Shown here in pieces: positions 2,524 through 48,837 of a stretch of DNA of 64,000 nucleotides. Within the stretch, counting starts at the first letter, position 1. The number at the start of each line of letters is the position of its first letter. The notes under the pieces were generated by a model. That model saw only the letters and a list, made by a program, of their open reading frames with translations. It was not told where the DNA came from and ran no database searches. The stretch covers positions 250,950 to 314,949 of the IMG/VR virus record IMGVR_UViG_3300020202_000061; one strand, 5' to 3'. The stretch is from a virus. The position numbers and the translations under genes were made by a program.

Positions 2524-3003
2524 ATGCTGGCGCACGTCGATTGGGGTGGACCGAATCAGGAATACCGATACACCTTGTGGAGGATTTGGGACGATTCGCT
2601 CCCAATCGTTCAGTGGATCGGCCTGAATCCGAGCACCGCTGACGAACACCGGGATGACCCGACCATCCGTAAGTGCGTGGGATTCGCTCGCCGCTGGGGA
2701 GCGGGTGCGATTTGCATGACCAATCTGTTTGCGTGGCGCGACACCAAGCCCGCTAACATGATGCGAGTGGCCGATCCTGTGGGACCGGAGAATGACCGGA
2801 TTCTCCAGGAAGTGGCAAAGCATGCCACGATCCGAGTGGCCGCCTGGGGTAATCACGGAGTGCATCTGAATCGAGCGGAGATCGTCACCAAGATGATCCC
2901 CGATCTCAGCATGCTCCGTATCAACGAAGCTACCGGCCAGCCTGGACATCCCCTCTACATACCCTATGAAACGAGTCTGAGTCCGTATGAAATCCGTCGC
3001 TAA
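2524..3003 (+). CDS. DUF1643 family protein
   Basis: GLNPSTAD…D.T…C..FA…NLFAWR pattern typical of DUF1643. Confidence 0.65.
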   Translation: MLAHVDWGGPNQEYRYTLWRIWDDSLPIVQWIGLNPSTADEHRDDPTIRKCVGFARRWGAGAICMTNLFAWRDTKPANMMRVADPVGPENDRILQEVAKHATIRVAAWGNHGVHLNRAEIVTKMIPDLSMLRINEATGQPGHPLYIPYETSLSPYEIRR

Positions 3004-4123
3004 TATCATCCATAAATGGCCCAAGCTGAAAACTGATGGCGAACGCCTGGGAATGCTCCGCGCCATCGCCACGGATAGTGATTTTTGGTTCTGTCTCCAT
3101 CTGAATTCGGAGAATCGTCCGACCAATCCCTATCAGATGGTATTCGGTCCGAATCCCACCTACGGAAGCGGTGTGGTTCACGGAGTGTTTCAGAAACTGG
3201 TTTATGCGTTGGAGCGGCAAGGACTCAAGCAGGAGCGCATGATCCAGGCCGTCCAGGCATTTGCCGGAGCCTGCACCCAAGAGGAATGGGAACTCTTCTA
3301 CATGCCCATCCTCAATCAGATTCGTCCCTCGATCTATGTGCCGCCACATCTGTTTAATCGAGTTGCTCCAGAAGAGTTTCGAATCCGCTGGCCCAGGCTG
3401 ATTCCGATGAAACCAGTCGATGAGAATTGGCGCTATGAGACCGAATACTACGTGGAACCGTTACCCACCGAGGATTACCCCCGTCGAGAGATGTGGGTGA
3501 TCGAGCCGGTGCGGGTATACGGTGTGGACGAGTTCGAGCAGACCGTGGATCGTCCGGAGGTCGTAGCGATCTTCGAGAAACTCCTACTCACGGATGAGAT
3601 CGCGTTTCCGATCCTGTTGGAGGTCTACGCTGATCCCCTGGTGGTGCGTGACGTGCATTTCCCTCGGGTCAATCTCCATCTGGAAGAACGCATGGAACTC
3701 CTGGAGGATATCCGTCATCGCTTGGAAGATACCGTGGAATTCTCCGAGGTTCACAAGGTTGAAACCGCAGCGATGAACGATCAACTCGCGATGTTCTGGG
3801 AGCAGGGTTATCGAGGGATGGTTTTGCGTTCGGCTCGCAGCGATATGTTGGTGCAGCCCACAGACCGGGTTTCGGTTCGAATAGACAACTATACGGAACA
3901 GAACAAAATCCTCGAATCCATTGATGTGCTCGTGCGGAATGGATTATCCCCGCATACGCAAATTGTCAAAGCAGGCTTGAAATCTCCCAACGCCCGTCAA
4001 CTTTATGAGGGCGAGAATATCCCAAGACGGCAAACCGTGCGATTACTGACGTGCGGCACGGACCGACATGGGGATTTCATGTTTCCTGTATTTGACCAAG
4101 TGGAAGAGGACAAAAATGACTGA
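2987..4123 (+). CDS. ATP-dependent DNA ligase (minimal phage type)
   Basis: motif I KLKTDGER (KxDGxR) near the N-terminus; EGYRGMVLRS motif IV-like; about 378 aa, T7-ligase size. Confidence 0.75.
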   Translation: MKSVANIIHKWPKLKTDGERLGMLRAIATDSDFWFCLHLNSENRPTNPYQMVFGPNPTYGSGVVHGVFQKLVYALERQGLKQERMIQAVQAFAGACTQEEWELFYMPILNQIRPSIYVPPHLFNRVAPEEFRIRWPRLIPMKPVDENWRYETEYYVEPLPTEDYPRREMWVIEPVRVYGVDEFEQTVDRPEVVAIFEKLLLTDEIAFPILLEVYADPLVVRDVHFPRVNLHLEERMELLEDIRHRLEDTVEFSEVHKVETAAMNDQLAMFWEQGYRGMVLRSARSDMLVQPTDRVSVRIDNYTEQNKILESIDVLVRNGLSPHTQIVKAGLKSPNARQLYEGENIPRRQTVRLLTCGTDRHGDFMFPVFDQVEEDKND

Positions 4124-11292: not shown

Positions 11293-11370
11293 ACGCTATA
11301 TACTAAGAGGCACCGAGGGTTTCAGATGCCTCTATGGGGATTCCAAATCAACAACGGGGTCGAACAACGA

Positions 11371-13305
11371 ATGTCTAATCTCTTCGCGGATTTCAAGACA
11401 ACTTTCGAAAAAACCAGGAAAACCGAACTCTCTCTCCAGGAATACTTGGACCTGTGCAAACAGGATCGAATGGCTTACGCCTGGGCGGTGGAGAGAATGC
11501 TGGCGGCTATCGGCGAGCCCAAGCTAGTTGACACGTCCGAGGACCCGCGCCATTCCAGAATCTTCCTGAACCGCACCATCAAGGTGTATGACGTGTTCAA
11601 GGATTTCTACGGGATGGAGGCGACCATCGAAAAGATCGTCGCCTTCTTCATGAAGGCCGCTCAAGGTCTGGAAGAGAAGAAGCAGGTTCTCTATCTGATG
11701 GGGCCGGTTGGATCGGCTAAGTCCTCTCTGGCAGAGCGTCTCAAGGCTCTGATGGAGAAGATGCCGATCTACGTGCTCAAGGCGGGTGATCAAATCAGCC
11801 CGGTGTTCGAGAATCCCTTGGGTCTGTTCGATCCGAACGTGTGGAGTGATCGCCTCCAAGAGGAATACGGGATTCCTCGTCGTTATCTGACCGGGTTGAT
11901 GTCGCCTTGGGCGGTAAAGCGCCTGAACGAGGACTTCGACGGGGATATCAGCAAGTTCAGTGTGGTGAAGCTCTACCCGAGCAAGCTCAAGCAGATAGCG
12001 ATCTCCAAGGTCGAACCCGGTGACGAGAACAACCAAGACATTTCGTCTCTGGTCGGTAAGGTTGATATCCGCAAGCTGGCGGAGTTCTCCGCTCGTGATA
12101 CCGATGCCTACAGCTACTCCGGTGGTCTCTGCTTGGCCAACCAGGGCGTGCTGGAGTTCGTCGAGATGTTCAAGGCACCGATCAAGATGCTGCATCCGAT
12201 GCTCACCGCGACCCAGGAGGGCAACTACAACGGCACCGAGGCGATCTCTGGTATTCCGTTCCAGGGTGTGATTCTGGCCCACTCCAACGAATCCGAATGG
12301 GAGTCGTTCAAGAGCAACAAGAACAACGAGGCATTCCTCGACCGCATCAGCATCATCAAGGTCCCTTACTGCCTGCGTGTCACGGACGAGACCAAAATTT
12401 ACCAGAAGCTCTTGCGTGATTCGTCCCTGGACAAGGCTCCATGCACACCCAAGACGCTGGAATTGCTCTCCCAAATGAGCGTGCTTTCCCGTCTGATCTA
12501 TCCGGAGAACTCTTCGATCCATTCGAAGATGAAGGTCTACGATGGTGAGAACATCAAGGAAACCGATCCCTACGCCAAATCTGTTCAGGAATATCGTGAA
12601 CTGGCCGGGGTCAACGAGGGTATGACCGGTCTCAGCACCCGCTGGGCTTTCAAGGTGCTGTCATCGGTGTTCAATTATGATCCGAACGAGATCGGCGCGA
12701 ATCCGGTCCATCTGTTCCGTATCTTGGAGGACAAGATCACTGAGGAACAATTCCCGAAGGAAGTCGAAGAGGACCTTCGTGAACACCTCCAGTGGATCAA
12801 GGCCAAGTACATCGATTTCATCGGCAATGAAATCCAGGTTGCCTACCTGGAGTCCTACACCGAATACGGCCAGAACATGTTCGACCGCTACATCGTCTAT
12901 GCGGATCATTGGATCGAGGATCGGGACTATCGTGATTCCGAGACCGGCGAGATGTACAACCGCGAAACCCTGAATAAGGAACTCGAAAAGATCGAGAAGC
13001 CCTCCGGTATCGCGAATCCCAAGGAATTCCGTAACGAGGTGGTCAACTACTCTCTCCGTTACAAGGCCAACCACGGCAAGTATCCGAGGTGGAACTCCTA
13101 CGAGAAGCTCAAGGAAATCATCGAGAAGAAGATGTTCGCGAACATCTCTGATCTCCTGCCGGTGATCTCGTTCGAGAAGAAATCCTCCGAGGAGCACGAG
13201 AAGAAGCACAAGGATTTTGTGCAGCGCATGAAAGAGAAGGGATACAGCGAGCGCCAGACCCGTATCGTCGTGGACTGGTTCATGAAGGTACAGAAGTCCA
13301 ACTGA
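11371..13305 (+). CDS. prkA: PrkA/YeaG-family serine protein kinase
   Basis: N-terminus LQEYLDLCKQDRMAYAWAVERMLAAIGEP and P-loop YLMGPVGSAKSSLAERLK parallel E. coli YeaG; alternative start 11326. Confidence 0.85.
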   Translation: MSNLFADFKTTFEKTRKTELSLQEYLDLCKQDRMAYAWAVERMLAAIGEPKLVDTSEDPRHSRIFLNRTIKVYDVFKDFYGMEATIEKIVAFFMKAAQGLEEKKQVLYLMGPVGSAKSSLAERLKALMEKMPIYVLKAGDQISPVFENPLGLFDPNVWSDRLQEEYGIPRRYLTGLMSPWAVKRLNEDFDGDISKFSVVKLYPSKLKQIAISKVEPGDENNQDISSLVGKVDIRKLAEFSARDTDAYSYSGGLCLANQGVLEFVEMFKAPIKMLHPMLTATQEGNYNGTEAISGIPFQGVILAHSNESEWESFKSNKNNEAFLDRISIIKVPYCLRVTDETKIYQKLLRDSSLDKAPCTPKTLELLSQMSVLSRLIYPENSSIHSKMKVYDGENIKETDPYAKSVQEYRELAGVNEGMTGLSTRWAFKVLSSVFNYDPNEIGANPVHLFRILEDKITEEQFPKEVEEDLREHLQWIKAKYIDFIGNEIQVAYLESYTEYGQNMFDRYIVYADHWIEDRDYRDSETGEMYNRETLNKELEKIEKPSGIANPKEFRNEVVNYSLRYKANHGKYPRWNSYEKLKEIIEKKMFANISDLLPVISFEKKSSEEHEKKHKDFVQRMKEKGYSERQTRIVVDWFMKVQKSN

Positions 13306-13316
13306 GGGCTATCATA

Positions 13317-14606
13317 GTGACCACGGTCATTGACAGACGTAAGACCGACCGCCAGAAGAACCTCTCCAATAGGCAGAGGTTCATCAAAAGAGCCAAGGAA
13401 GCGATCAAGAAGTCGATCCGTGGAGCCATCCTCAATAAGGATCGCTCGATCAAAGACTCATCCGGCGGTAATGTTCGAATCCCCAACAAAGGGACGACAG
13501 AGCCGAATTTCCGCAATGGAGACGGTGGTCGTAAGATCATCGTTCGTCCGGGTAATCCAGGCACTGTGCCGGGTGACAAGATTCCACGTCCCAGAAAGGA
13601 TCAGACTTCGGGCCGTGGTAACAGTGATCCATCCAAAGACCCCGCTGAGTTGATGGATGAGTTCGAGTTCACGCTGACCCGTGAGGAATTTCTGGACTTC
13701 TTCTTTGAGGACCTGGAATTGCCCAACTTGGTCAAGACCGCCCTCAAAGAGGTGGTCGAGTACAAATGGTCCCGTTCGGGATTTGCCTCGGTCGGTATGC
13801 CGTCGAATCTCGACATTACCCGAACCTTCATCAATTCGATGGGTCGCCATTTCGCTCTGGCCGGAGCCTACCAGAAAAAGATCGACGAACTTCGCGCTAA
13901 TGGTGGATCGGAAGAGGATATCGCGCTCTGGGAGAAGAGGAAGCGGACCATCCCGTTCATGGATGACGTGGACCTGCGCTATCGCCTGTTTGTGAAGCAG
14001 CCCAAGCCGATCACCAAAGCGGTAATGTTCTGTCTGATGGACGTATCTGGCAGTATGGGCGAGTACGAGAAGGACTTGGCCAAGCGTTTCTTCATGCTCC
14101 TCTACATGTTTCTGGAGCGCAAATACGAGTCGGTCACCGTGGTGTTCATCCGTCATACCACCGAAGCCAAAGAGGTGGACGAGCAGGAGTTCTTCTACTC
14201 GAAAGAATCAGGTGGAACCGTGGTCAGCACGGCTCTGGAAATGACTGCTGATCTGATTCAGCGGCGCTTCAACAGTTCAGACTACAACATCTACGTGAGC
14301 CAGTGTTCGGACGGCGACAATGCCTACGATGACAACTCCGTGTGCACCCAGATCATCCGTGAGGATATTCTGCCTTATGTCCAGTATTTTGCGTATGTCC
14401 AGGTCGGACATCAGCGCGATGAGATGGCCAACATGTGGGGTGTGTTTGCGGGTCGTCTTGGGAACACCACGAGCACGAATTCCCTCTACGAGGTTTATAA
14501 GGAGATCGAGAAGAATACCTCCCATTTCAAGGTGAAGAACCTGAATGGTCCTGCCGACATCTACCCGGTGTTTCGCGAACTCTTTGAGAAGGACATCAAG
14601 GTATGA
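13317..14606 (+). CDS. yeaH: YeaH/YhbH family protein (DUF444, UPF0229)
   Basis: VIDRRKTDRQKNLSNRQRF…EFLDFFFEDLELPNL…VMFCLMDVSGSM…FFYSKESGGTVVS…DIYPVFRELF colinear with E. coli YeaH. Confidence 0.85.
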   Translation: MTTVIDRRKTDRQKNLSNRQRFIKRAKEAIKKSIRGAILNKDRSIKDSSGGNVRIPNKGTTEPNFRNGDGGRKIIVRPGNPGTVPGDKIPRPRKDQTSGRGNSDPSKDPAELMDEFEFTLTREEFLDFFFEDLELPNLVKTALKEVVEYKWSRSGFASVGMPSNLDITRTFINSMGRHFALAGAYQKKIDELRANGGSEEDIALWEKRKRTIPFMDDVDLRYRLFVKQPKPITKAVMFCLMDVSGSMGEYEKDLAKRFFMLLYMFLERKYESVTVVFIRHTTEAKEVDEQEFFYSKESGGTVVSTALEMTADLIQRRFNSSDYNIYVSQCSDGDNAYDDNSVCTQIIREDILPYVQYFAYVQVGHQRDEMANMWGVFAGRLGNTTSTNSLYEVYKEIEKNTSHFKVKNLNGPADIYPVFRELFEKDIKV

Positions 14607-16093
14607 GCCTGCTCTGGAATGATAATGAATGGACTTTCCCGCTCATCGACAAGGTCTACAAGGAGATCGAGCAGATCGGCGTGGGTGAGATGGGTCTGGA
14701 CATCTTCCCGAATCAGATCGAGGTCATCAGCAGTGATCAGATGCTGGACGCTTATGCAAGCCATGCCATGCCAGTCATGTATAAGCACTGGTCCTTTGGC
14801 AAGTCGTATTCGGTCAACAAGAAACTCTATGAGAACGGTCAGCAGGGTCTGGCCTACGAGGTCGTAATCAACTCGAATCCCTGCATTGCCTATCTCATGG
14901 AGGACAACACCATGACCATGCAGGCTTTGGTCATGGCCCATGCCAGCATCGGTCACAACAACTTCTTCAAGACTAACTACCTGTTCCAGCAGTGGACCGA
15001 TCCGGATGGGATCATCGACTACCTGATCTTCGCCAAGAATTATGTGGCGAAGTGTGAGGAGCGATACGGTGCCGAACGAGTCGAGGAAGTTCTCGATTCC
15101 TGTCACGCTCTCATGGACCAGGGTATGGACCGCTTTAAGCGAGCCCGCAAACGTTCCCGTCAGGAGGAGAAGCTCCGTGCGGCCGAACGTGAAGCCTATC
15201 ACCAAAGTCGTGTGAGTGAGCTTTGGCCGGACACCTGGAAGTCCGAGACCCCGGCCCAGAAGGAAGAACGCAAGAAGCGGATTCTTCCGGAGCCCGAGGA
15301 CAACATCCTCTACTTCATCGAGAAGAACTCGCCGATCCTGGAGCCGTGGGAACGAGAGATCGTTCGTATCGTCCGTAAGGTATCGCAGTATTTCTGGCCT
15401 CAGATGCAGACCCAGGTCGGTAATGAGGGCTGGGCCACCCATACCCATTACTTCATTATGAATCGTCTCTACGAGAAGGGTCTGATCTCGGACGGTTCTC
15501 TGTTGGAGTTCTTCAAGTCCCACACGGGCGTTATCGCGCAGTATCGCATGCAGCGTCTGAACCCGTACTGCCTGGGATTCAACATTTTCCGCGACATCAA
15601 GCGTATGTGCGAGAAACCCACCGATGAGGATCGTGAATGGTTCCCCGATCTGGTCGGGATGAACTGGCTGGAAGCCGCGAAGGACGCGCGTGAGAACTAC
15701 AAGGATGAGAGCCTGATCCTCCAGTACCTCAGCCCCAAGGTGATCCGCGATCTTAAGCTTTTCTCGATCCTGGATGATTACGGCACGGACTCGATGAACT
15801 ATATCGTCCAGAACATCCACGACCGGGAAGGCTACAAGGAAGTTCGTCGATCCCTCTCTCGCAACTACGACATCAACATGAGAATTCCACAGATTCAGGT
15901 GTCGGATGTCAATGTGGATGGGGATCGCAAACTGATCCTTCGCCATACCCGTCACAACTATGTGCCGCTGGATCAGGCCGATCTCAAGGAAACTCTCCTC
16001 CATGTGAGGCGTCTCTGGGGGTTTGCGGTGCGTCTGGACTTCTACAATCCCGGCGCGGTCAGTCCCACGGATTGGGTAGCGGTGGGTGAATAA
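14603..16093 (+). CDS. spoVR: SpoVR/YcgB family protein
   Basis: 496 aa; conserved SpoVR stretches (MYKHWSFGKSY, GHNNFFK, GWATHTHY). Confidence 0.85.
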   Translation: MSLLWNDNEWTFPLIDKVYKEIEQIGVGEMGLDIFPNQIEVISSDQMLDAYASHAMPVMYKHWSFGKSYSVNKKLYENGQQGLAYEVVINSNPCIAYLMEDNTMTMQALVMAHASIGHNNFFKTNYLFQQWTDPDGIIDYLIFAKNYVAKCEERYGAERVEEVLDSCHALMDQGMDRFKRARKRSRQEEKLRAAEREAYHQSRVSELWPDTWKSETPAQKEERKKRILPEPEDNILYFIEKNSPILEPWEREIVRIVRKVSQYFWPQMQTQVGNEGWATHTHYFIMNRLYEKGLISDGSLLEFFKSHTGVIAQYRMQRLNPYCLGFNIFRDIKRMCEKPTDEDREWFPDLVGMNWLEAAKDARENYKDESLILQYLSPKVIRDLKLFSILDDYGTDSMNYIVQNIHDREGYKEVRRSLSRNYDINMRIPQIQVSDVNVDGDRKLILRHTRHNYVPLDQADLKETLLHVRRLWGFAVRLDFYNPGAVSPTDWVAVGE

Positions 16094-20277: not shown

Positions 20278-20363
20278 GCCGGGATGGCTGAGTGGTCGAA
20301 AGCAGGCGTTTCGTAAGCGTCCGAAGCAATTCCTCGCAGGTTCGAATCCTGTTCCCGGCTCCA
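20278..20363 (+). tRNA. class II (Ser-type scaffold, long variable arm) tRNA with anticodon CGT
   Basis: 86 nt; acceptor gccggga/tcccggc; Ser-like D-arm tggctgagtggtcgaaagc; anticodon stem ggcgt/gcgtc with loop ttCGTaa; variable arm about 15 nt; T-arm gcaggttcgaatcctgt; CCA. Confidence 0.7.
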
Positions 20364-24998: not shown

Positions 24999-25084
24999 GC
25001 CAGGATGGCTGAGTGGCCGAAAGCAGAGCCTTTGTAACGCTCCGGGGAAACCCCACGCAGGTTCGAATCCTGTTCCTGGCTCCA
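24999..25084 (+). tRNA. class II (Ser-type scaffold) tRNA with anticodon TGT; paralog of the 20278 gene
   Basis: 86 nt; acceptor gccagga/tcctggc; D-arm tggctgagtggccgaaagc; anticodon stem gagc(c)/(c)gctc with loop ttTGTaa; long variable arm; T-arm gcaggttcgaatcctgt; CCA. Confidence 0.7.
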
Positions 25085-37796: not shown

Positions 37797-37830
37797 ATAT
37801 TGGAAACCACTCGGTATTCCTGTAAAATGC

Positions 37831-37859
37831 TTGACATTTTCGACATTTTCGAGTATAAT
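37831..37859 (+). promoter_or_regulatory. consensus sigma70 promoter (TTGACA-17-TATAAT) for peptide deformylase
   Basis: TTGACA 37831-37836; TATAAT 37854-37859. Confidence 0.7.
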
Positions 37860-37865
37860 CCTCCG

Positions 37866-38297
37866 ATGCCGTTGAAGCTGATCCCGGACACCGATCCCGT
37901 ATTGCATGAGAAGGCCGAACCCGTTCAGAACGTGAACGAGGAAGTCGAGCCCGTGCTGATGGAAATGATCGCGATCATGGTCCGCGCCGGGGGCGTCGGT
38001 TTGGCCGCGCCCCAGGTCGGAATCAAGAAGCGTTTCTTCATCATCGCCTACGGCGGTCTGACCAACGTCTACATCAATCCGGAGATCGTCAAGTCGGAGC
38101 CCAAAACCGTCAATATGGTGGAGGGTTGCCTGAGTTATCCCGGTCAGAATCGTGAAATTGTTCGTCACGAGCGCATCCGCGTGGCCTACACCACGATCAC
38201 TGGAGAGCACAAGTCTCACTACGTGAATGGGATGATGGCCCGCATCTTCCAGCACGAACTCGATCACCTTGATGGAATTGTTTTCTTGGAACGATAA
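37866..38297 (+). CDS. def: peptide deformylase
   Basis: motif 1 GVGLAAPQVG, motif 2 EGCLS, motif 3 HELDHLDG. Confidence 0.85.
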   Translation: MPLKLIPDTDPVLHEKAEPVQNVNEEVEPVLMEMIAIMVRAGGVGLAAPQVGIKKRFFIIAYGGLTNVYINPEIVKSEPKTVNMVEGCLSYPGQNREIVRHERIRVAYTTITGEHKSHYVNGMMARIFQHELDHLDGIVFLER

Positions 38298-38337: not shown

Positions 38338-39219
38338 ATGAGAAGAGCACAAGGCGGTCAATTCGTCTACGAGGGTGGGCAAGTCATCGGCTTGGAGTTC
38401 GGCGCGGATTACGTGGCCGAACACGAATGCGGGATCGAGGACCTACAGCACGAATTCGGTATCCCACTGAGACCGACCTGGACCGAATTCGGAATCGAGG
38501 CTCGTCGTATCACCAATGTCCCGGAACGTCTGTCCTTGCTGGACTGGGACGCGAGGGGGACGATGCATCGAGGCATCATCTTCGACGACTACCGCTCCTA
38601 CAAGCATCGCCTGGACAAGGCTCAGATCGATTCCCTGCAACTGTCCGACCCCAAGGACAACTGGTGGAGGAACTCGCCTCCGCCGGAATCCCGATTGATC
38701 ACGGCTTGGAAACGAAATTCGTTTGGATTTCTCGTTCATACCGAAACGCTAGGTCGGGACATCCTCGCAATCAGTGATCTCTACGACGCGTTCCTGACCA
38801 TGGACCTTGCCATGTGGGCCAGTGGTAACCAACTCAGCGGCTCCATGCTCCGTGGGGGTCTGGTCCTGGCCATCGTGAGTCGAGTGCCCGAGAAGTTTCG
38901 CGAACACCTAAAGGATCAGGATCAGAACCAACTCGCCCTGGATGAGGCCGCGCACCTGACCGGTCTGGTCCAACGTGTGAATGAGGCCCGAGGGCAGCGT
39001 CAATGGCCGGATTGGTCACCATTCGCCCATTTCTCACTACGCCCTGCATGGGTTGCGCAGAAGCAATCCGCACTGAACGGAGCCGAAACCACCTACCCGG
39101 TGTGTTTCTGGTTGAATCCGCTCGATCAGAAAAACCAGAAGGCCGGATACTACACAGTGGAGCAACTCGATGAGTGGCTTGCCGGTCGTGGTCCGGTCTA
39201 CAGAGAGGTCACCCAGTGA
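38338..39219 (+). CDS. hypothetical protein
   Basis: ORF 293 aa. Confidence 0.55.
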   Translation: MRRAQGGQFVYEGGQVIGLEFGADYVAEHECGIEDLQHEFGIPLRPTWTEFGIEARRITNVPERLSLLDWDARGTMHRGIIFDDYRSYKHRLDKAQIDSLQLSDPKDNWWRNSPPPESRLITAWKRNSFGFLVHTETLGRDILAISDLYDAFLTMDLAMWASGNQLSGSMLRGGLVLAIVSRVPEKFREHLKDQDQNQLALDEAAHLTGLVQRVNEARGQRQWPDWSPFAHFSLRPAWVAQKQSALNGAETTYPVCFWLNPLDQKNQKAGYYTVEQLDEWLAGRGPVYREVTQ

Positions 39220-39937: not shown

Positions 39938-40275
39938 TGCTGGTAAACCTGATCGATGCGCGGTCGAATCGCTACGATGTCCATTGTGATGCGGAGCTTC
40001 GACCATCCTGGTTGGACAACGGATTGCCCGGCGCAACGCAATTCCCGGTGATCCGACCGAACACGGACATGGCCAAGCCCATGTTGTCTCTGCACATGCC
40101 CAACACCTGCTTGATCGAGATCATCAACCTCTGCCAGACCCTGGGATTTCCGGTCACCGCATATCTCTATGATCGGGGAACTCAGACCCGAATCCAGACC
40201 GAATACAAGCAGGTCGAAACCCTTCTGGAGCAGACAACCACAGAGAAAATCAACGCTCCAGAAAAAACCTCTTGA
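39937..40275 (+). CDS. hypothetical protein
   Basis: ORF 112 aa. Confidence 0.45.
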   Translation: MLVNLIDARSNRYDVHCDAELRPSWLDNGLPGATQFPVIRPNTDMAKPMLSLHMPNTCLIEIINLCQTLGFPVTAYLYDRGTQTRIQTEYKQVETLLEQTTTEKINAPEKTS

Positions 40276-40300
40276 CTTCCCGAACGGTTTCCCCTAAATA
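40272..40300 (+). promoter_or_regulatory. sigma70-like promoter of the main tRNA operon
   Basis: TTGACT 40272-40277; spacer tcccgaacggtttcccc; TAAATA 40295-40300. Confidence 0.65.
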
Positions 40301-40304
40301 CCCA

Positions 40305-40542
40305 TCACAAGCGGTGCCCAGCGGAGATGGTTGGGAGTAATTAAATGGTGAGTAATCATCAGCCGCTTCAACTTTTGAGGAACGAGTTACCACAATGACC
40401 CTGATTCGACGCAAACGAAAGATTAGCGCCTAATCACTCCGTCAGTCCACGGAGTGGTTCTAGGCTCCGTGGGTAATGGTACTCTCCCTAACTCCCACCT
40501 AAATCTGAGATAGGACGCCCCCACAAGGGGTTGTTGCTGTTT
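40305..40542 (+). ncRNA. structured leader of about 240 nt upstream of the tRNA cluster (function unknown)
   Basis: lies between promoter and first tRNA; mutually exclusive hairpins actccgt/acggagt versus ccacggag/ctccgtgg; long-range aagcgg/ccgctt pairing; cccc-acaa-gggg hairpin. Confidence 0.35.
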
Positions 40543-40619
40543 GTTCCCGTAGCTCAACTGGATAGAGCACCAGACTACGAATCTGGCGGTTGGGGGTTCG
40601 ACTCCCTCCGGGAACGCCA
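40543..40619 (+). tRNA. tRNA-Arg (ACG)
   Basis: acceptor gttcccg/cgggaac; D-arm tagctcaactggatagagc; anticodon stem ccaga/tctgg with loop ctACGaa; T-arm gggggttcgactccctc; CCA. Confidence 0.85.
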
Positions 40620-41039: not shown

Positions 41040-41114
41040 GGGCCGGTAGCTCAGAGGCAGAGCAGCATCCTCTTAAGTTGACGGTCGTGGGTTCGATTCC
41101 CACCCGGCCCTCCA
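41040..41114 (+). tRNA. tRNA-Lys (CTT)-like
   Basis: perfect acceptor gggccgg/ccggccc; D-arm tagctcagaggcagagc; T-arm gtgggttcgattcccac; CCA; anticodon loop ctCTTaa but anticodon stem only 3 of 5 bp (gcatc/gttga). Confidence 0.6.
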
Positions 41115-41119
41115 AATTC

Positions 41120-41195
41120 GCCAGATTACAGTTTAGTGGTAGAACACGCGGCCGATAACCGTGGAGCGGGGGTTCGATTCCCTCATCTGGCACCA
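41120..41195 (+). tRNA. tRNA with anticodon GAT (Ile-type) and atypical features
   Basis: 76 nt; acceptor gccagat/atctggc; CCA; anticodon stem cgcgg/ccgtg with loop ccGATaa (C33); 2-nt insertion before D-stem gttt/gaac. Confidence 0.6.
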
Positions 41196-41196
41196 A

Positions 41197-41279
41197 GGGC
41201 ACGGAGCTTTAGAGCCGACAGGAAAGGCAAGAGACTCTTACTCTCCCAGCATGGGGTTCGACTCCTCCCGTGCCCGCCA
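41197..41279 (+). tRNA. non-canonical 83-nt tRNA-like gene (8-bp acceptor, 4-bp T-stem, expanded D region) with Lys-type anticodon loop ctCTTac
   Basis: acceptor gggcacgg/ccgtgccc (8 bp); disc g + CCA; T-arm ggggttcgactcctc; D region 24 nt with hairpin gcc-gacaggaaa-ggc; anticodon stem gaga/tctc. Confidence 0.5.
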
Positions 41280-41280
41280 A

Positions 41281-41355
41281 GGTGGATTCTGTCTAATGGT
41301 AGGACGCGCGCCTGATGAGCGTGAAGTAGAGGTTCGATTCCTCTATCCACCACCA
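41281..41355 (+). tRNA. tRNA with anticodon GAT (G37)
   Basis: acceptor ggtggat/atccacc; CCA; anticodon stem cgcgc/gcgtg with loop ctGATga; T-arm agaggttcgattcctct. Confidence 0.65.
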
Positions 41356-41356
41356 A

Positions 41357-41432
41357 GGACCTGTAGCTGAGAGGTTTAGCGGCTGGCTTTTACCCAGCGT
41401 CAACGGGAGTTCGATTCTCTCCAGGTCCACCC
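41357..41432 (+). tRNA. tRNA-Lys (TTT)
   Basis: acceptor ggacctg/caggtcc; anticodon stem gctgg/ccagc with loop ctTTTac; T-arm gggagttcgattctctc. Confidence 0.75.
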
Positions 41433-41446
41433 AGTTTCCCAGTAAT

Positions 41447-41530
41447 GGGCCGCGAGAGTATAGCAGTACAGGAATCTGCACCGGGCTTTTAATCCGGCCT
41501 CAAGGGGTTCGACTCCTCCGTGGCTCGCCA
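41447..41530 (+). tRNA. non-canonical 84-nt tRNA-like gene (8/4 architecture, expanded D region) with anticodon loop ctTTTaa; paralog of the 41197 gene
   Basis: acceptor gggccgcg/cgtggctc (8 bp, two G·U); g + CCA; identical T-arm ggggttcgactcctc; D hairpin gcag-tacaggaat-ctgc; anticodon stem ccggg/tccgg. Confidence 0.5.
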
Positions 41531-41534
41531 ATTG

Positions 41535-41578
41535 AAAAACCCCCGAAGTTTCCCATCTTGGAAACACGGGGGTTTTCT
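41535..41578 (+). terminator. rho-independent terminator closing the tRNA operon
   Basis: aaaaaCCCCCG…(nested hairpin gtttcc/ggaaac)…CGGGGGTTTTct. Confidence 0.6.
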
Positions 41579-41579
41579 C

Positions 41580-41903
41580 ATGACCTGGAAAACATTTTGG
41601 ATTTGCATGACCGTTTGTGTCTGCGGCGTGCTCGGAGTGACTGCGTGGACTATAAGGGCAGAGCGTTCTGACCCGGTGGAGCAGAACGTGAAATGCCTCA
41701 ACGTAATGGATCAACTCGACTCACTCGCCCAACAGGGTCAGCGAAAGATCGTCATGTTCCAGATCGGCAAACCCATGACCGACGTGGAGATGATCGTGGG
41801 CGATCCCGAGGAGGGCGACTGGACCCGCGTAATCGTGCACCAGGATGCGTCCGCGTGTATTGTCGAGTCGGGGAGGGGTTTGCTTTTGCCAACCCCAGAA
41901 TAA
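41580..41903 (+). CDS. hypothetical membrane-anchored protein
   Basis: ATG 41580 immediately after the terminator T-tract; TM TFWICMTVCVCGVLGVTAW; start uncertain. Confidence 0.4.
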   Translation: MTWKTFWICMTVCVCGVLGVTAWTIRAERSDPVEQNVKCLNVMDQLDSLAQQGQRKIVMFQIGKPMTDVEMIVGDPEEGDWTRVIVHQDASACIVESGRGLLLPTPE

Positions 41904-48405: not shown

Positions 48406-48837
48406 ATGACTAGAGAACCCGTATTCTCGTTGACCCGAAAGGATTTTCGCCTGGAATGGTTTAGTGGCACCGGACCGGGCGGTCAAAACCGCAACAAGGT
48501 TCAGGCGTGTTGCCGAATCACCCATATCGCCACGGGTATCCAGGCGACCTGCCAGGAACACCGTGAACGCTCCAAAAACCAAAAAGCCGCGTTCAAGGTC
48601 CTGGTTGAGCGTCTGATGCCGTGGATCGAGGAACAGGTCAACGGGAAACGTCCCGATTATAACCCCCAGACCGATACGATTCGCACCTATCACGTCGCGG
48701 ATAATCGTGTGAAGGATCACGATTCGGGTTATCGTCAGACCTGGGATGAGGTCGAACGCGATCTATCCAAGATGATTGAGGCTCGCCTTCAACAAAAAGT
48801 CCGCACCGAACTTGAAAAACAACAGGACGAATCCTAA
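48406..48837 (+). CDS. arfB: ArfB-like peptidyl-tRNA hydrolase (class I release-factor GGQ domain protein)
   Basis: GGQ motif in SGTGPGGQNRNKVQ; about 140 aa with basic C-terminal tail, as in ArfB/YaeJ. Confidence 0.8.
   Translation: MTREPVFSLTRKDFRLEWFSGTGPGGQNRNKVQACCRITHIATGIQATCQEHRERSKNQKAAFKVLVERLMPWIEEQVNGKRPDYNPQTDTIRTYHVADNRVKDHDSGYRQTWDEVERDLSKMIEARLQQKVRTELEKQQDES

Follow-up and report, generated by a model that had tools for sequence, protein, structure and literature searches.

A transfer RNA (tRNA) operon in a 64,000-nucleotide (nt) stretch of viral DNA (hereafter the window; positions 250,950 to 314,949 of IMG/VR record IMGVR_UViG_3300020202_000061) contains two genes, E1 and E2, that fold in an unusual way. 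Their conservation leads us to conclude, with moderate confidence, that both are genuine, selectively maintained non-canonical tRNA genes that most likely work as lysine decoders. A preliminary description of the window had presented them as a paralogous pair of non-canonical, 83-84-nt tRNA-like genes with Lys anticodons, and we verified its coordinates and listed features in the sequence: both genes have an 8-base-pair (bp) acceptor stem, a 4-bp T stem, an identical T arm and a discriminator followed by CCA, and they are interleaved with Lys(CTT) and Lys(TTT) genes (Table 1). The acceptor strands are GGGCACGG/CCGTGCCC in E1 and GGGCCGCG/CGTGGCTC, including two G-U pairs, in E2. The anticodon loops read CTCTTAC and CTTTTAA, respectively, and both RNAs have a D stem of 3-4 bp, a 9-nt D loop containing GG and a 6-nt variable region.

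From the 5′ end, each RNA consists of the 8-nt acceptor strand, A9, a 3-nt strand of a helix that we call P, a linker of 4-5 nt, the D hairpin, an A and the anticodon arm; one nt, the 3-nt partner strand of P, two nt, the T arm with its 4-bp stem, the acceptor 3′ strand, the discriminator and CCA follow. E1 and E2 are thus predicted to form five helices, that is, normal D, anticodon and T arms plus the acceptor and the extra P helix. G8 is complementary to the C after the T stem, giving a branch of 8 + 4 = 12 bp, and the alternative fifth T-stem pair would be non-pairing (U-C in E1, A-C in E2). P joins nucleotides 10-12 to three nt of the variable region; its register is common to the two genes, with GCU:AGC in E1 and GAG:CUC in E2. 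What had been described as an expanded D region is instead an ordinary D hairpin shifted by an insertion that holds the covarying 3-bp P helix; the variable arms are indeed short, but they are not free, as three of their six nt pair with nucleotides 10-12.

ARAGORN reported 17 tRNA genes in the window and Rfam 16, with E1 and E2 in neither set, and ARAGORN also made no call for either gene in the two related contigs described below (L240 and L241). By the formal definition of a tRNA (RF00005 gathering score or an ARAGORN call), both genes therefore fall outside the class. An Infernal search at relaxed thresholds, as the preliminary description had proposed, gave E1 a partial match of 18.5 bits to the Rfam tRNA model, for which the gathering score is 29; E2 scored 15.3 bits with tRNA and 18.5 bits with tRNA-Sec, its best match, both below threshold. 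In the Rfam tRNA alignment of E1, positions 41213-41268 fall on model positions 9-63 with normal D, anticodon and T arms.

Table 1 Features of E1, E2 and the surrounding tRNA operon, in window coordinates
Feature	Position	Strand	Details
E1	41197..41279	+	83 nt, 8/4 extra-helix tRNA (predicted); anticodon CUU 41237-41239, discriminator G 41276, CCA 41277-41279
E1 acceptor 5′ strand, 8 nt	41197..41204	+	Partner strand 41268-41275
E1 P helix 5′ strand GCU	41206..41208	+	Partner AGC 41248-41250, variable region
E1 linker UUAGA, 5 nt	41209..41213	+	Precedes D hairpin
E1 D hairpin GCC-GACAGGAAA-GGC	41214..41228	+	Normal D arm in Rfam tRNA alignment
E1 T arm GGGG-UUCGACU-CCUC, 4-bp stem	41253..41267	+	Same letters as E2 T arm
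E2	41447..41530	+	84 nt, 8/4 extra-helix tRNA (predicted); anticodon UUU 41488-41490, discriminator G 41527, CCA 41528-41530
E2 P helix 5′ strand GAG	41456..41458	+	Partner CUC 41499-41501
E2 linker UAUA, 4 nt	41459..41462	+	Precedes D hairpin
E2 D hairpin GCAG-UACAGGAAU-CUGC	41463..41479	+	Linker and loop invariant between orthologues
E2 T arm GGGG-UUCGACU-CCUC, 4-bp stem	41504..41518	+	Same letters as E1 T arm
tRNA operon segment	41040..41530	+	Lys(CUU) 41040-41114, Ile-like 41120-41195, E1, Ile(GAU) 41281-41355, Lys(UUU) 41357-41431, E2
Intrinsic-terminator-like hairpin, then UUUUCU	41533..41580	+	Directly 3′ of E2; minimum free energy (MFE) -25 kcal/mol

Conservation of the fold

Homologues of a neighbouring open reading frame (ORF) of 107 amino acids led to two syntenic relatives of the window, a 409-kb JGI contig (L240) and a Logan contig (L241), both of which contain E1 and E2. 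More distant homologues of the same ORF (L243-L245) were non-syntenic and had no E-type tRNA, and an IMG/VR protein-neighbour search with the ORF at 38338-39219 returned no relatives. The E1 orthologues are 98% (L241) and 95% (L240) identical to E1, and all four differences lie within compensating pairs: acceptor pair G7-C is A-U in both contigs, and P pair G10-C54 is A-U in L240. E2 is identical in L241 and matches at 72 of 84 positions (86%) in L240 by alignment count, or with 13 substitutions in a hand parse. These comprise C7-G to U-A and two G-U to A-U changes (including G2-U71) in the acceptor, A11-U54 to C-G in P (giving GCG:CGC), G20-C30 to A-U in the D stem and C-G to G-C in the anticodon stem.

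Every stem substitution between E2 and its L240 orthologue keeps pairing, and the sole loop change is the unpaired nt before the T stem. No variation between orthologues is seen at A9, U33 or A37, in the linker, anticodon or T loop, at the D-loop GG or, that nt apart, in the other loops. Identity to the orthologues is 86-100% for E1 and E2, compared with 78-99% for the canonical operon tRNAs and 67-93% for flanking ORFs. Being ungapped and of the same length, the comparisons of E1 and E2 with their orthologues are free of alignment bias. Substitutions that keep pairs, together with invariant loops, point to structured RNAs under purifying selection and exclude pseudogenes. The idea that the genes are decaying tRNA pseudogenes or spacer remnants, which the preliminary description had tied to a lack of conservation in related phages, can draw on their rejection by tRNA finders and on unremarkable single-sequence folding z-scores; it is scarcely credible given these compensatory changes and is effectively refuted by strongly covarying homologues across unrelated phages and bacterial arrays.

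A covariance model built on two E2 orthologues with the proposed structure aligned 19 distinct members of the wider family. Covariance-model alignment took the place of MAFFT, which misplaced a gap at column 1 for E1 versus E2. With the E2-built model, E1 scored 64 bits (E=4e-13), and E values for many relatives ranged from 1e-11 to 1e-15. A structural descriptor of the fold gave no matches on shuffled sequence; it also fits canonical tRNAs in which the D-stem GCU at 10-12 wobbles with a variable-loop GGU, all of which had a normal 49:65 pair and were discarded. Standard pairs filled 97.1% of cells across the 19 members, versus 80.5% after shuffling and 38-58% with slid partners. Both sides had changed at 15 of 24 pairs, and the observed values were reached by 0 of 500 shuffles, a control that ignores phylogeny.

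All eight acceptor pairs hold in every member, with G8:C and A9 invariant, and the would-be 49:65 pair is A-C, U-C or C-C throughout, never standard. P is paired in 57 of 57 cells and all three of its pairs covary: 10:67 is GC in 17 members and AU in 2, 11:66 is CG in 18 and AU in 1, and 12:65 is GC in 10, CG in 6 and UA in 3. T-stem pair 72:84 is GU in 16, UA in 2 and GC in 1, and the strands GUGG/CCAC and GGGG/CCCU occur in Brevundimonas and Caulobacter phage homologues; this covariation is evidence for the 4-bp register. Covariation is also seen in the D stem when E1 is compared with E2. P is present in the MFE fold of a soil member, and RNAalifold recovers both P and the 8-bp acceptor from a seven-sequence alignment (A5) that was itself fitted to the proposed model. 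An acceptor stem, a discriminator with CCA, a 7-nt anticodon loop with U33 and a purine at 37, a UUCRANY T loop and the D-loop GG were found across all 19 members.

Relatives in soil arrays, cultured phages and the literature

A query combining the T arm with the Lys anticodon loop found 84-86-nt RNAs with the E2 layout in 12 JGI soil and peat metagenome contigs. These E-type RNAs lie in arrays of 33-34 tRNA genes (L298 and L305), of which that in L305 spans all 20 amino acids, and the arrays are neighboured by ordinary bacterial genes such as those for gamma-glutamyltranspeptidase and branched-chain amino acid permeases. ARAGORN detected no canonical Lys(UUU) in either array; Glu and Gln have both C- and U-starting anticodons there. 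The E-type gene is the predicted occupant of the Lys(UUU) slot in these soil alphaproteobacterial arrays, beside a canonical or class-II-like Lys(CUU). GTDB yielded one match, an uncultured alphaproteobacterial metagenome-assembled genome with the same array order. The class is thus not phage-specific, contrary to what had been suggested, for the same architecture takes up the Lys(UUU) position of tRNA arrays on soil alphaproteobacterial chromosomes. The acceptor of the soil genes (GGACCTG) equals that of the window's Lys(UUU), and that of E2 (GGGCCGC) resembles that of the window's Lys(CUU) (GGGCCGG), a likeness to canonical tRNA-Lys that suggests descent from it.

Full-length homologues were also found by BLAST in cultured phages, namely seven Brevundimonas jumbo phages including vB_BpoS-Kabachok and vB_BpoS-Gurke, in which the D stem is 5 bp with a tetraloop. 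Caulobacter phage CcrBL10 carries a CUU version and Caulobacter phage BL57 a similar partial match. The architecture therefore occurs in unrelated phage groups, the Dolichocephalovirinae siphophages and the Rak2/Phosso-like jumbo phage represented by the window. The window is part of a 401,308-bp contig, of which Logan holds an identical copy, and its family-B DNA polymerase is closest, at 34% identity, to those of jumbo phages such as Sinorhizobium phage Phosso, Ralstonia phage RsoM2USA and Escherichia phage 121Q. The GenBank records of the cultured phages show no annotation at the matched positions. E-type genes are a blind spot of annotation by ARAGORN and by Rfam tRNA at its gathering score, and because they are missed and unannotated, tRNA repertoires and codon-usage analyses of these phages are incomplete.

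The D-loop motif ACAGGAA, which the preliminary description had singled out as shared by the pair, is present in both D loops but does not define the family: it is a common D-loop variant, often carried by ordinary phage tRNAs (for example, GTAGCTCA-ACAGGAA-GAGC), absent from most family members and not retained in the soil or Brevundimonas relatives. ACAGGAA combined with the exact T arm gave 0 matches in JGI metagenomes. As a family marker it was abandoned, the pattern ACAGGAA..GGTTCGANTCC having saturated IMG/VR with ordinary tRNAs. The T arm GGGG-UUCGACU-CCUC, with mismatched 49:65, is common to many 86-95-nt 8/4 class-II tRNAs in IMG/VR, which we take to be the phage tRNA-Ser type of Mukai et al. 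(2017; PMC5389517).

That study describes 8/4 and 9/3 tRNAs, including 8/4 tRNA-Ser and tRNA-His in alphaproteobacterial phage clusters, and reports that 8/4 tRNAs are active in Escherichia coli translation (PMC5389517). It had also already reported an E-loop form of 8/4 tRNA, in which an extra loop separates the acceptor stem from the D stem (reviewed in PMC7609411), so the novelty of architecture that the preliminary description implied does not stand. E1 and E2 have the 12-bp acceptor/T branch of the (8/4) tRNAs of Mukai et al. and, like E-loop tRNAs, 7-8 extra nt between G8 and the A preceding the D stem. The tested example, E-loop tRNA1, has a GCU anticodon and U73 and was not charged by E. 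coli GlyRS or ThrRS (PMC5389517). Compared by description, it shares with the E1/E2 family the 8 + 4 bp, the extra nt between acceptor and D stems, occurrence in clusters of irregular tRNAs (polycistrons in soil metatranscriptomes), a soil origin and being missed by standard annotation; it differs in anticodon, in being attributed to Acidobacteria and in having its loop drawn unpaired, whereas the E1/E2 family has CUU or UUU, occurs in alphaproteobacterial phages and arrays, and has loop nt paired with the variable region.

The 8/4 Ser-type and allo-tRNAs likewise share the 8/4 branch, the T arm GGGG-UUCGACU-CCUC and a place in phage tRNA clusters, but have a 2-nt connector, a long D stem capped by a tetraloop and a variable arm that is also long. 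None of them has a P helix or regular Lys anticodons, with a Lys-anticodon allo-tRNA seen once. The long variable arm, long tetralooped D stem and Ser-type identity that mark allo-tRNAs are absent from E1 and E2, as are the 13-bp branch, UCA anticodon and long variable arm of tRNA-Sec; bacterial tRNA-Sec (RF01852) resembles them in its 8-bp acceptor stem and differs in its 13-bp (8/5) branch, 6-bp D stem, long variable arm and UCA anticodon. E-type relatives, like the tRNA array units already surveyed in bacteria and phages, sit in dense arrays of >30 tRNA genes; the surveys, by their abstracts, concern other groups, namely Acidithiobacillus, Mycobacterium and Firmicutes (PMC4758250, PMC5966550). 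Relative to the main text of Mukai et al., the Lys anticodons, the Lys(UUU) role in complete arrays, the pairing of loop and variable region, and the presence in cultured Dolichocephalovirinae and an unrelated jumbo phage are new, although they may be partly in its supplementary figures.

Several further elements were noted in the course of these searches. Inside soil array L298 (5284-7029, - strand), alongside the E-type tRNA-Lys, lies a Ro60 orthologue with TROVE and Ro60 vWA domains. The Y RNAs with which Ro60 associates contain tRNA-like domains. We set aside a small upstream ORF that terminates within the anticodon loop in soil arrays, as its frame is not conserved. Three candidates for the 8/4-plus-P form, at L132 10525-10607 (identical to L175 and L313), L157 4183-4265 (-) and L271 from ~498 (+), have a 3-nt linker and a D stem of 5-6 bp, their P registers having been found with flexible spacing, which is weak evidence alone. 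In the L132 and L157 candidates the anticodon loop is CUUAUCA (UAU, position 37 being C), and the L132 gene adjoins an Ile(GAU); the L271 candidate differs in its T arm and combines a GCA (Cys) anticodon with U73.

Probable lysine decoding and alternative readings

We propose that E1 and E2 would be transcribed within the packed phage tRNA operon, which would end at the terminator after E2, and processed like tRNAs. Host LysRS would charge them with lysine, reading mainly anticodon U35/U36, and EF-Tu would carry them through the 12-bp acceptor/T branch, after which E1 (CUU) would read AAG and E2 (UUU) AAA and AAG. U35/U36 is the main determinant for LysRS; both genes have it, with C or U at position 34, and CUU and UUU are conserved in all orthologues. 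The operon spacers measure 1 nt at three junctions, 5 nt and ~15 nt, and because those on both sides of E1 are 1 nt, E1 fills exactly a tRNA-sized slot from its 5′ G1 to the discriminator and CCA. Of the decoding or regulatory RNA envisaged by the preliminary description, we judge decoding likelier than regulation.

Several observations pull the other way. The choice of 8/4 over 7/5 rests on the invariant G8:C and the never-pairing 49/65 rather than on covariation. The proposed fold of E2 has an energy of -27.1 kcal/mol, versus -29.6 kcal/mol for its MFE fold; nearest-neighbour energies are neutral toward P in both genes and single-sequence z-scores are weak. The alignments were fitted to the proposed model, which biases the pair counts. 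E1 and E2 have G as discriminator, and other family members A, G, C or U, rather than the A73 expected of tRNA-Lys. A73 is a usual but minor LysRS element, and the window's own canonical Lys(CUU) has U73.

E1 and E2 could instead be ordinary 7/5 tRNA-Lys in which 7-8 nt have been inserted after position 8 and the first T-stem pair is mismatched, the eighth acceptor pair and P remaining unformed in the mature RNA. Such a fold is compatible with the invariance of G8 and its partner and with energies that do not require P, and the operon tRNAs at 41120-41195 and 41281-41355 have 1-2 extra nt at the same junction. We nevertheless consider it unlikely, because 49:65 fails to pair in every member while G8:C always does, and because P is unbroken across the family, takes three pair types at one position and undergoes compensatory changes between same-length orthologues. 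The model-fitted RNAalifold consensus also includes both disputed helices, and the soil MFE fold includes P.

A different possibility is that E1 and E2 mimic tRNAs outside translation, as a decoy or sponge for a tRNA-Lys nuclease, a modification enzyme or a tRNA-binding factor, or as an element in operon processing or regulation. E2 retains the UAAUC anticodon-arm motif recognised by the PARIS nuclease AriB, which would suit such a role, and with canonical Lys(CUU) and Lys(UUU) also present, the phage has no obvious gap in decoding capacity. In addition, aminoacylation was not seen for the E-loop 8/4 tRNA that was tested, related irregular tRNAs accepted an amino acid yet went unused in translation, and in E. 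coli the allo-tRNA(UAU) variants either lacked activity or were toxic (PMC5389517). We find a mimic doubtful, since everything that translation needs is conserved (the 12-bp branch, CCA, U33, A37 and exact CUU and UUU anticodons), whereas a decoy would need neither an intact acceptor end nor anticodon conservation in both isoacceptor forms. Complete soil arrays, moreover, have no Lys(UUU) gene other than the E-type one.

A further reading is that E1 and E2 are missense or recoding tRNAs, their non-A discriminator and altered body redirecting identity to another amino acid. Allo-tRNAs insert Ser or Ala whatever the anticodon (PMC5389517), and the discriminator G, variable in the family, leaves room for such a shift. 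The long variable arm needed by SerRS is absent, however, and there is no conserved G3:U70 for AlaRS, the G2-U71 of E2 being A-U in L240. The acceptor stems are also tRNA-Lys-like, and systematic miscoding of AAA and AAG would be highly deleterious for the bacterial chromosomes that bear the arrays. We regard recoding as improbable. If E1 and E2 instead decode lysine, then a natural tRNA core tolerates a fifth helix, which would bear on the way in which tRNA shape is gauged by RNase P, LysRS, EF-Tu, modification enzymes and the ribosome, and would offer a new chassis for orthogonal tRNA design.

Possible links to defence, and the operon context

Evasion of defence nucleases that target tRNA-Lys is a plausible but speculative rationale for the shape, drawn by analogy; against it, E2 keeps the U36-A-A-U-C motif that AriB recognises in E. 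coli tRNA-Lys. The tRNA-Lys of phage T5 escapes AriB, which reads the anticodon stem (U36-A-A-U-C|A41) and, via a second subunit, D-loop nucleotides 16-17, and whose targets are Lys, Thr and Asn tRNAs (PMC11464382, PMC12409363). The same three are the tRNAs with remodelled bodies in the window and in Brevundimonas phage Gurke, a pattern consistent with escape, by a change of architecture, from nucleases that gauge the tRNA body. More speculatively, the remodelled core of E1 and E2 might be poorly recognised by host nucleases directed at tRNA-Lys, the phage holding both a canonical and a divergent set. T5's tRNA-Lys(UUU) is likewise a phage lysine tRNA kept beside the host tRNA-Lys, with the same proposed role of Lys decoding under attack, but it is a canonical cloverleaf that escapes through the point changes U39A, A41C and U16C, whereas E1 and E2 alter the architecture (PMC11464382, PMC12409363). 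Known escape cases involve point changes only, and architectural remodelling would differ from them. Members of the family are present in phages that infect Caulobacter vibrioides CB15, a model organism in genetics, which makes this idea directly testable.

Taking these patterns together, we offer one joint reading, which is tentative and could well be wrong. Alphaproteobacterial phages and mobile arrays may systematically redesign ANN-codon tRNAs (Lys, Asn, Thr and Ile) to outlast tRNA-targeting immune nucleases, by way of 8/4-plus-P bodies, class-II-like long variable arms or Sec-like D arms. In the first of these, variable-region nt would take over the role of the 3′ strand of the D stem, making P a distinct functional fold.

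Other tRNAs with unusual bodies were observed in the window and in related sequences. Two Thr tRNAs in the window, 20278-20363 and 24999-25084 (CGU and UGU), are 86 nt long; their class-II body combines a Leu/Ser-like D arm and a long variable arm with a 7/5 branch, and the discriminator is U. Long variable arms in bacteria are normally limited to Leu, Ser and Tyr. Beside the canonical Asn at 259-334, a second tRNA-Asn(GUU) at 345-420 has a Sec/allo-like D arm of 5-6 bp with a tetraloop (CGCAC-CGGG-TGTGCG). Phage Gurke has a class-II-like Lys(CUU) and an 84-nt class-II-like Asn, and a class-II-like Lys(CUU) also occurs in soil arrays and in an IMG/VR phage (L049, a 47-kb contig). The latter also has an 85-nt Thr(UGU) (assigned by length only) and, beside canonical and class-II-like Lys tRNAs, a 94-nt tRNA (3626-3719, -) whose anticodon loop is that of Lys(UUU) and whose D region spans ~37 nt, and an odd element with a CUUUUAA loop (2991-3076, -). 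Between the tRNA-Pro and the class-II-like tRNA-Lys of Gurke (L318 1205-1399) and Kabachok (L317 1200-1390) lie two unannotated Thr-type (GGU and CGU) tRNA-like genes with aberrant bodies. Two IMG/VR sequences (L166 and L274) contain a 75-nt 8/4 tRNA whose anticodon is CGU and whose D arm is Sec-like.

The order of operon tRNAs is identical in L240 and L241, and the terminator-like element after E2 is 96% conserved there; this hairpin was missed by a simple scan, which required a loop of 3-8 nt, because it is long and composite. The tRNA at 41120-41195 scores 41.4 bits with Rfam and is not called by ARAGORN in the window, and its orthologues in L240 and L241 are called as Ile(GAU); its U8 and A9 are separated by two extra nt, and its anticodon loop reads CCGAUAA (GAU, position 33 being C). 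The Ile(GAU) at 41281-41355 has one extra nt at the U8/A9 junction. The nominally canonical Lys(CUU) at 41040-41114 has U-U and G-A mismatches in its anticodon stem (GCAUC/GUUGA), a discriminator U and the greatest divergence of any operon tRNA (78% identity to its orthologues).

Upstream of three Arg tRNAs, a conserved non-coding stretch at 40300-40542 is preceded by TTGACT-17 nt-TAAATA (40272-40300) and could be a leader or small RNA; 40381-40619 is 94% identical in L240, and 40240-40560 had no Rfam match at E<=1. Among 30 window ORFs scanned against Pfam, none encoded an aminoacyl-tRNA synthetase or a tRNA repair protein. The tRNA region is flanked by genes for a peptide deformylase (37800-38297), inferred from annotated syntenic genes in L240 and L241, and for an RF-1-domain (ArfB/peptidyl-tRNA-hydrolase-like) protein (48406-48837), confirmed by Pfam in the window. 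Elsewhere in the window (11326-16093), the phage encodes a trio of PrkA kinase, DUF444 (YeaH) and SpoVR genes, which in bacteria form a module associated with stress and sporulation.

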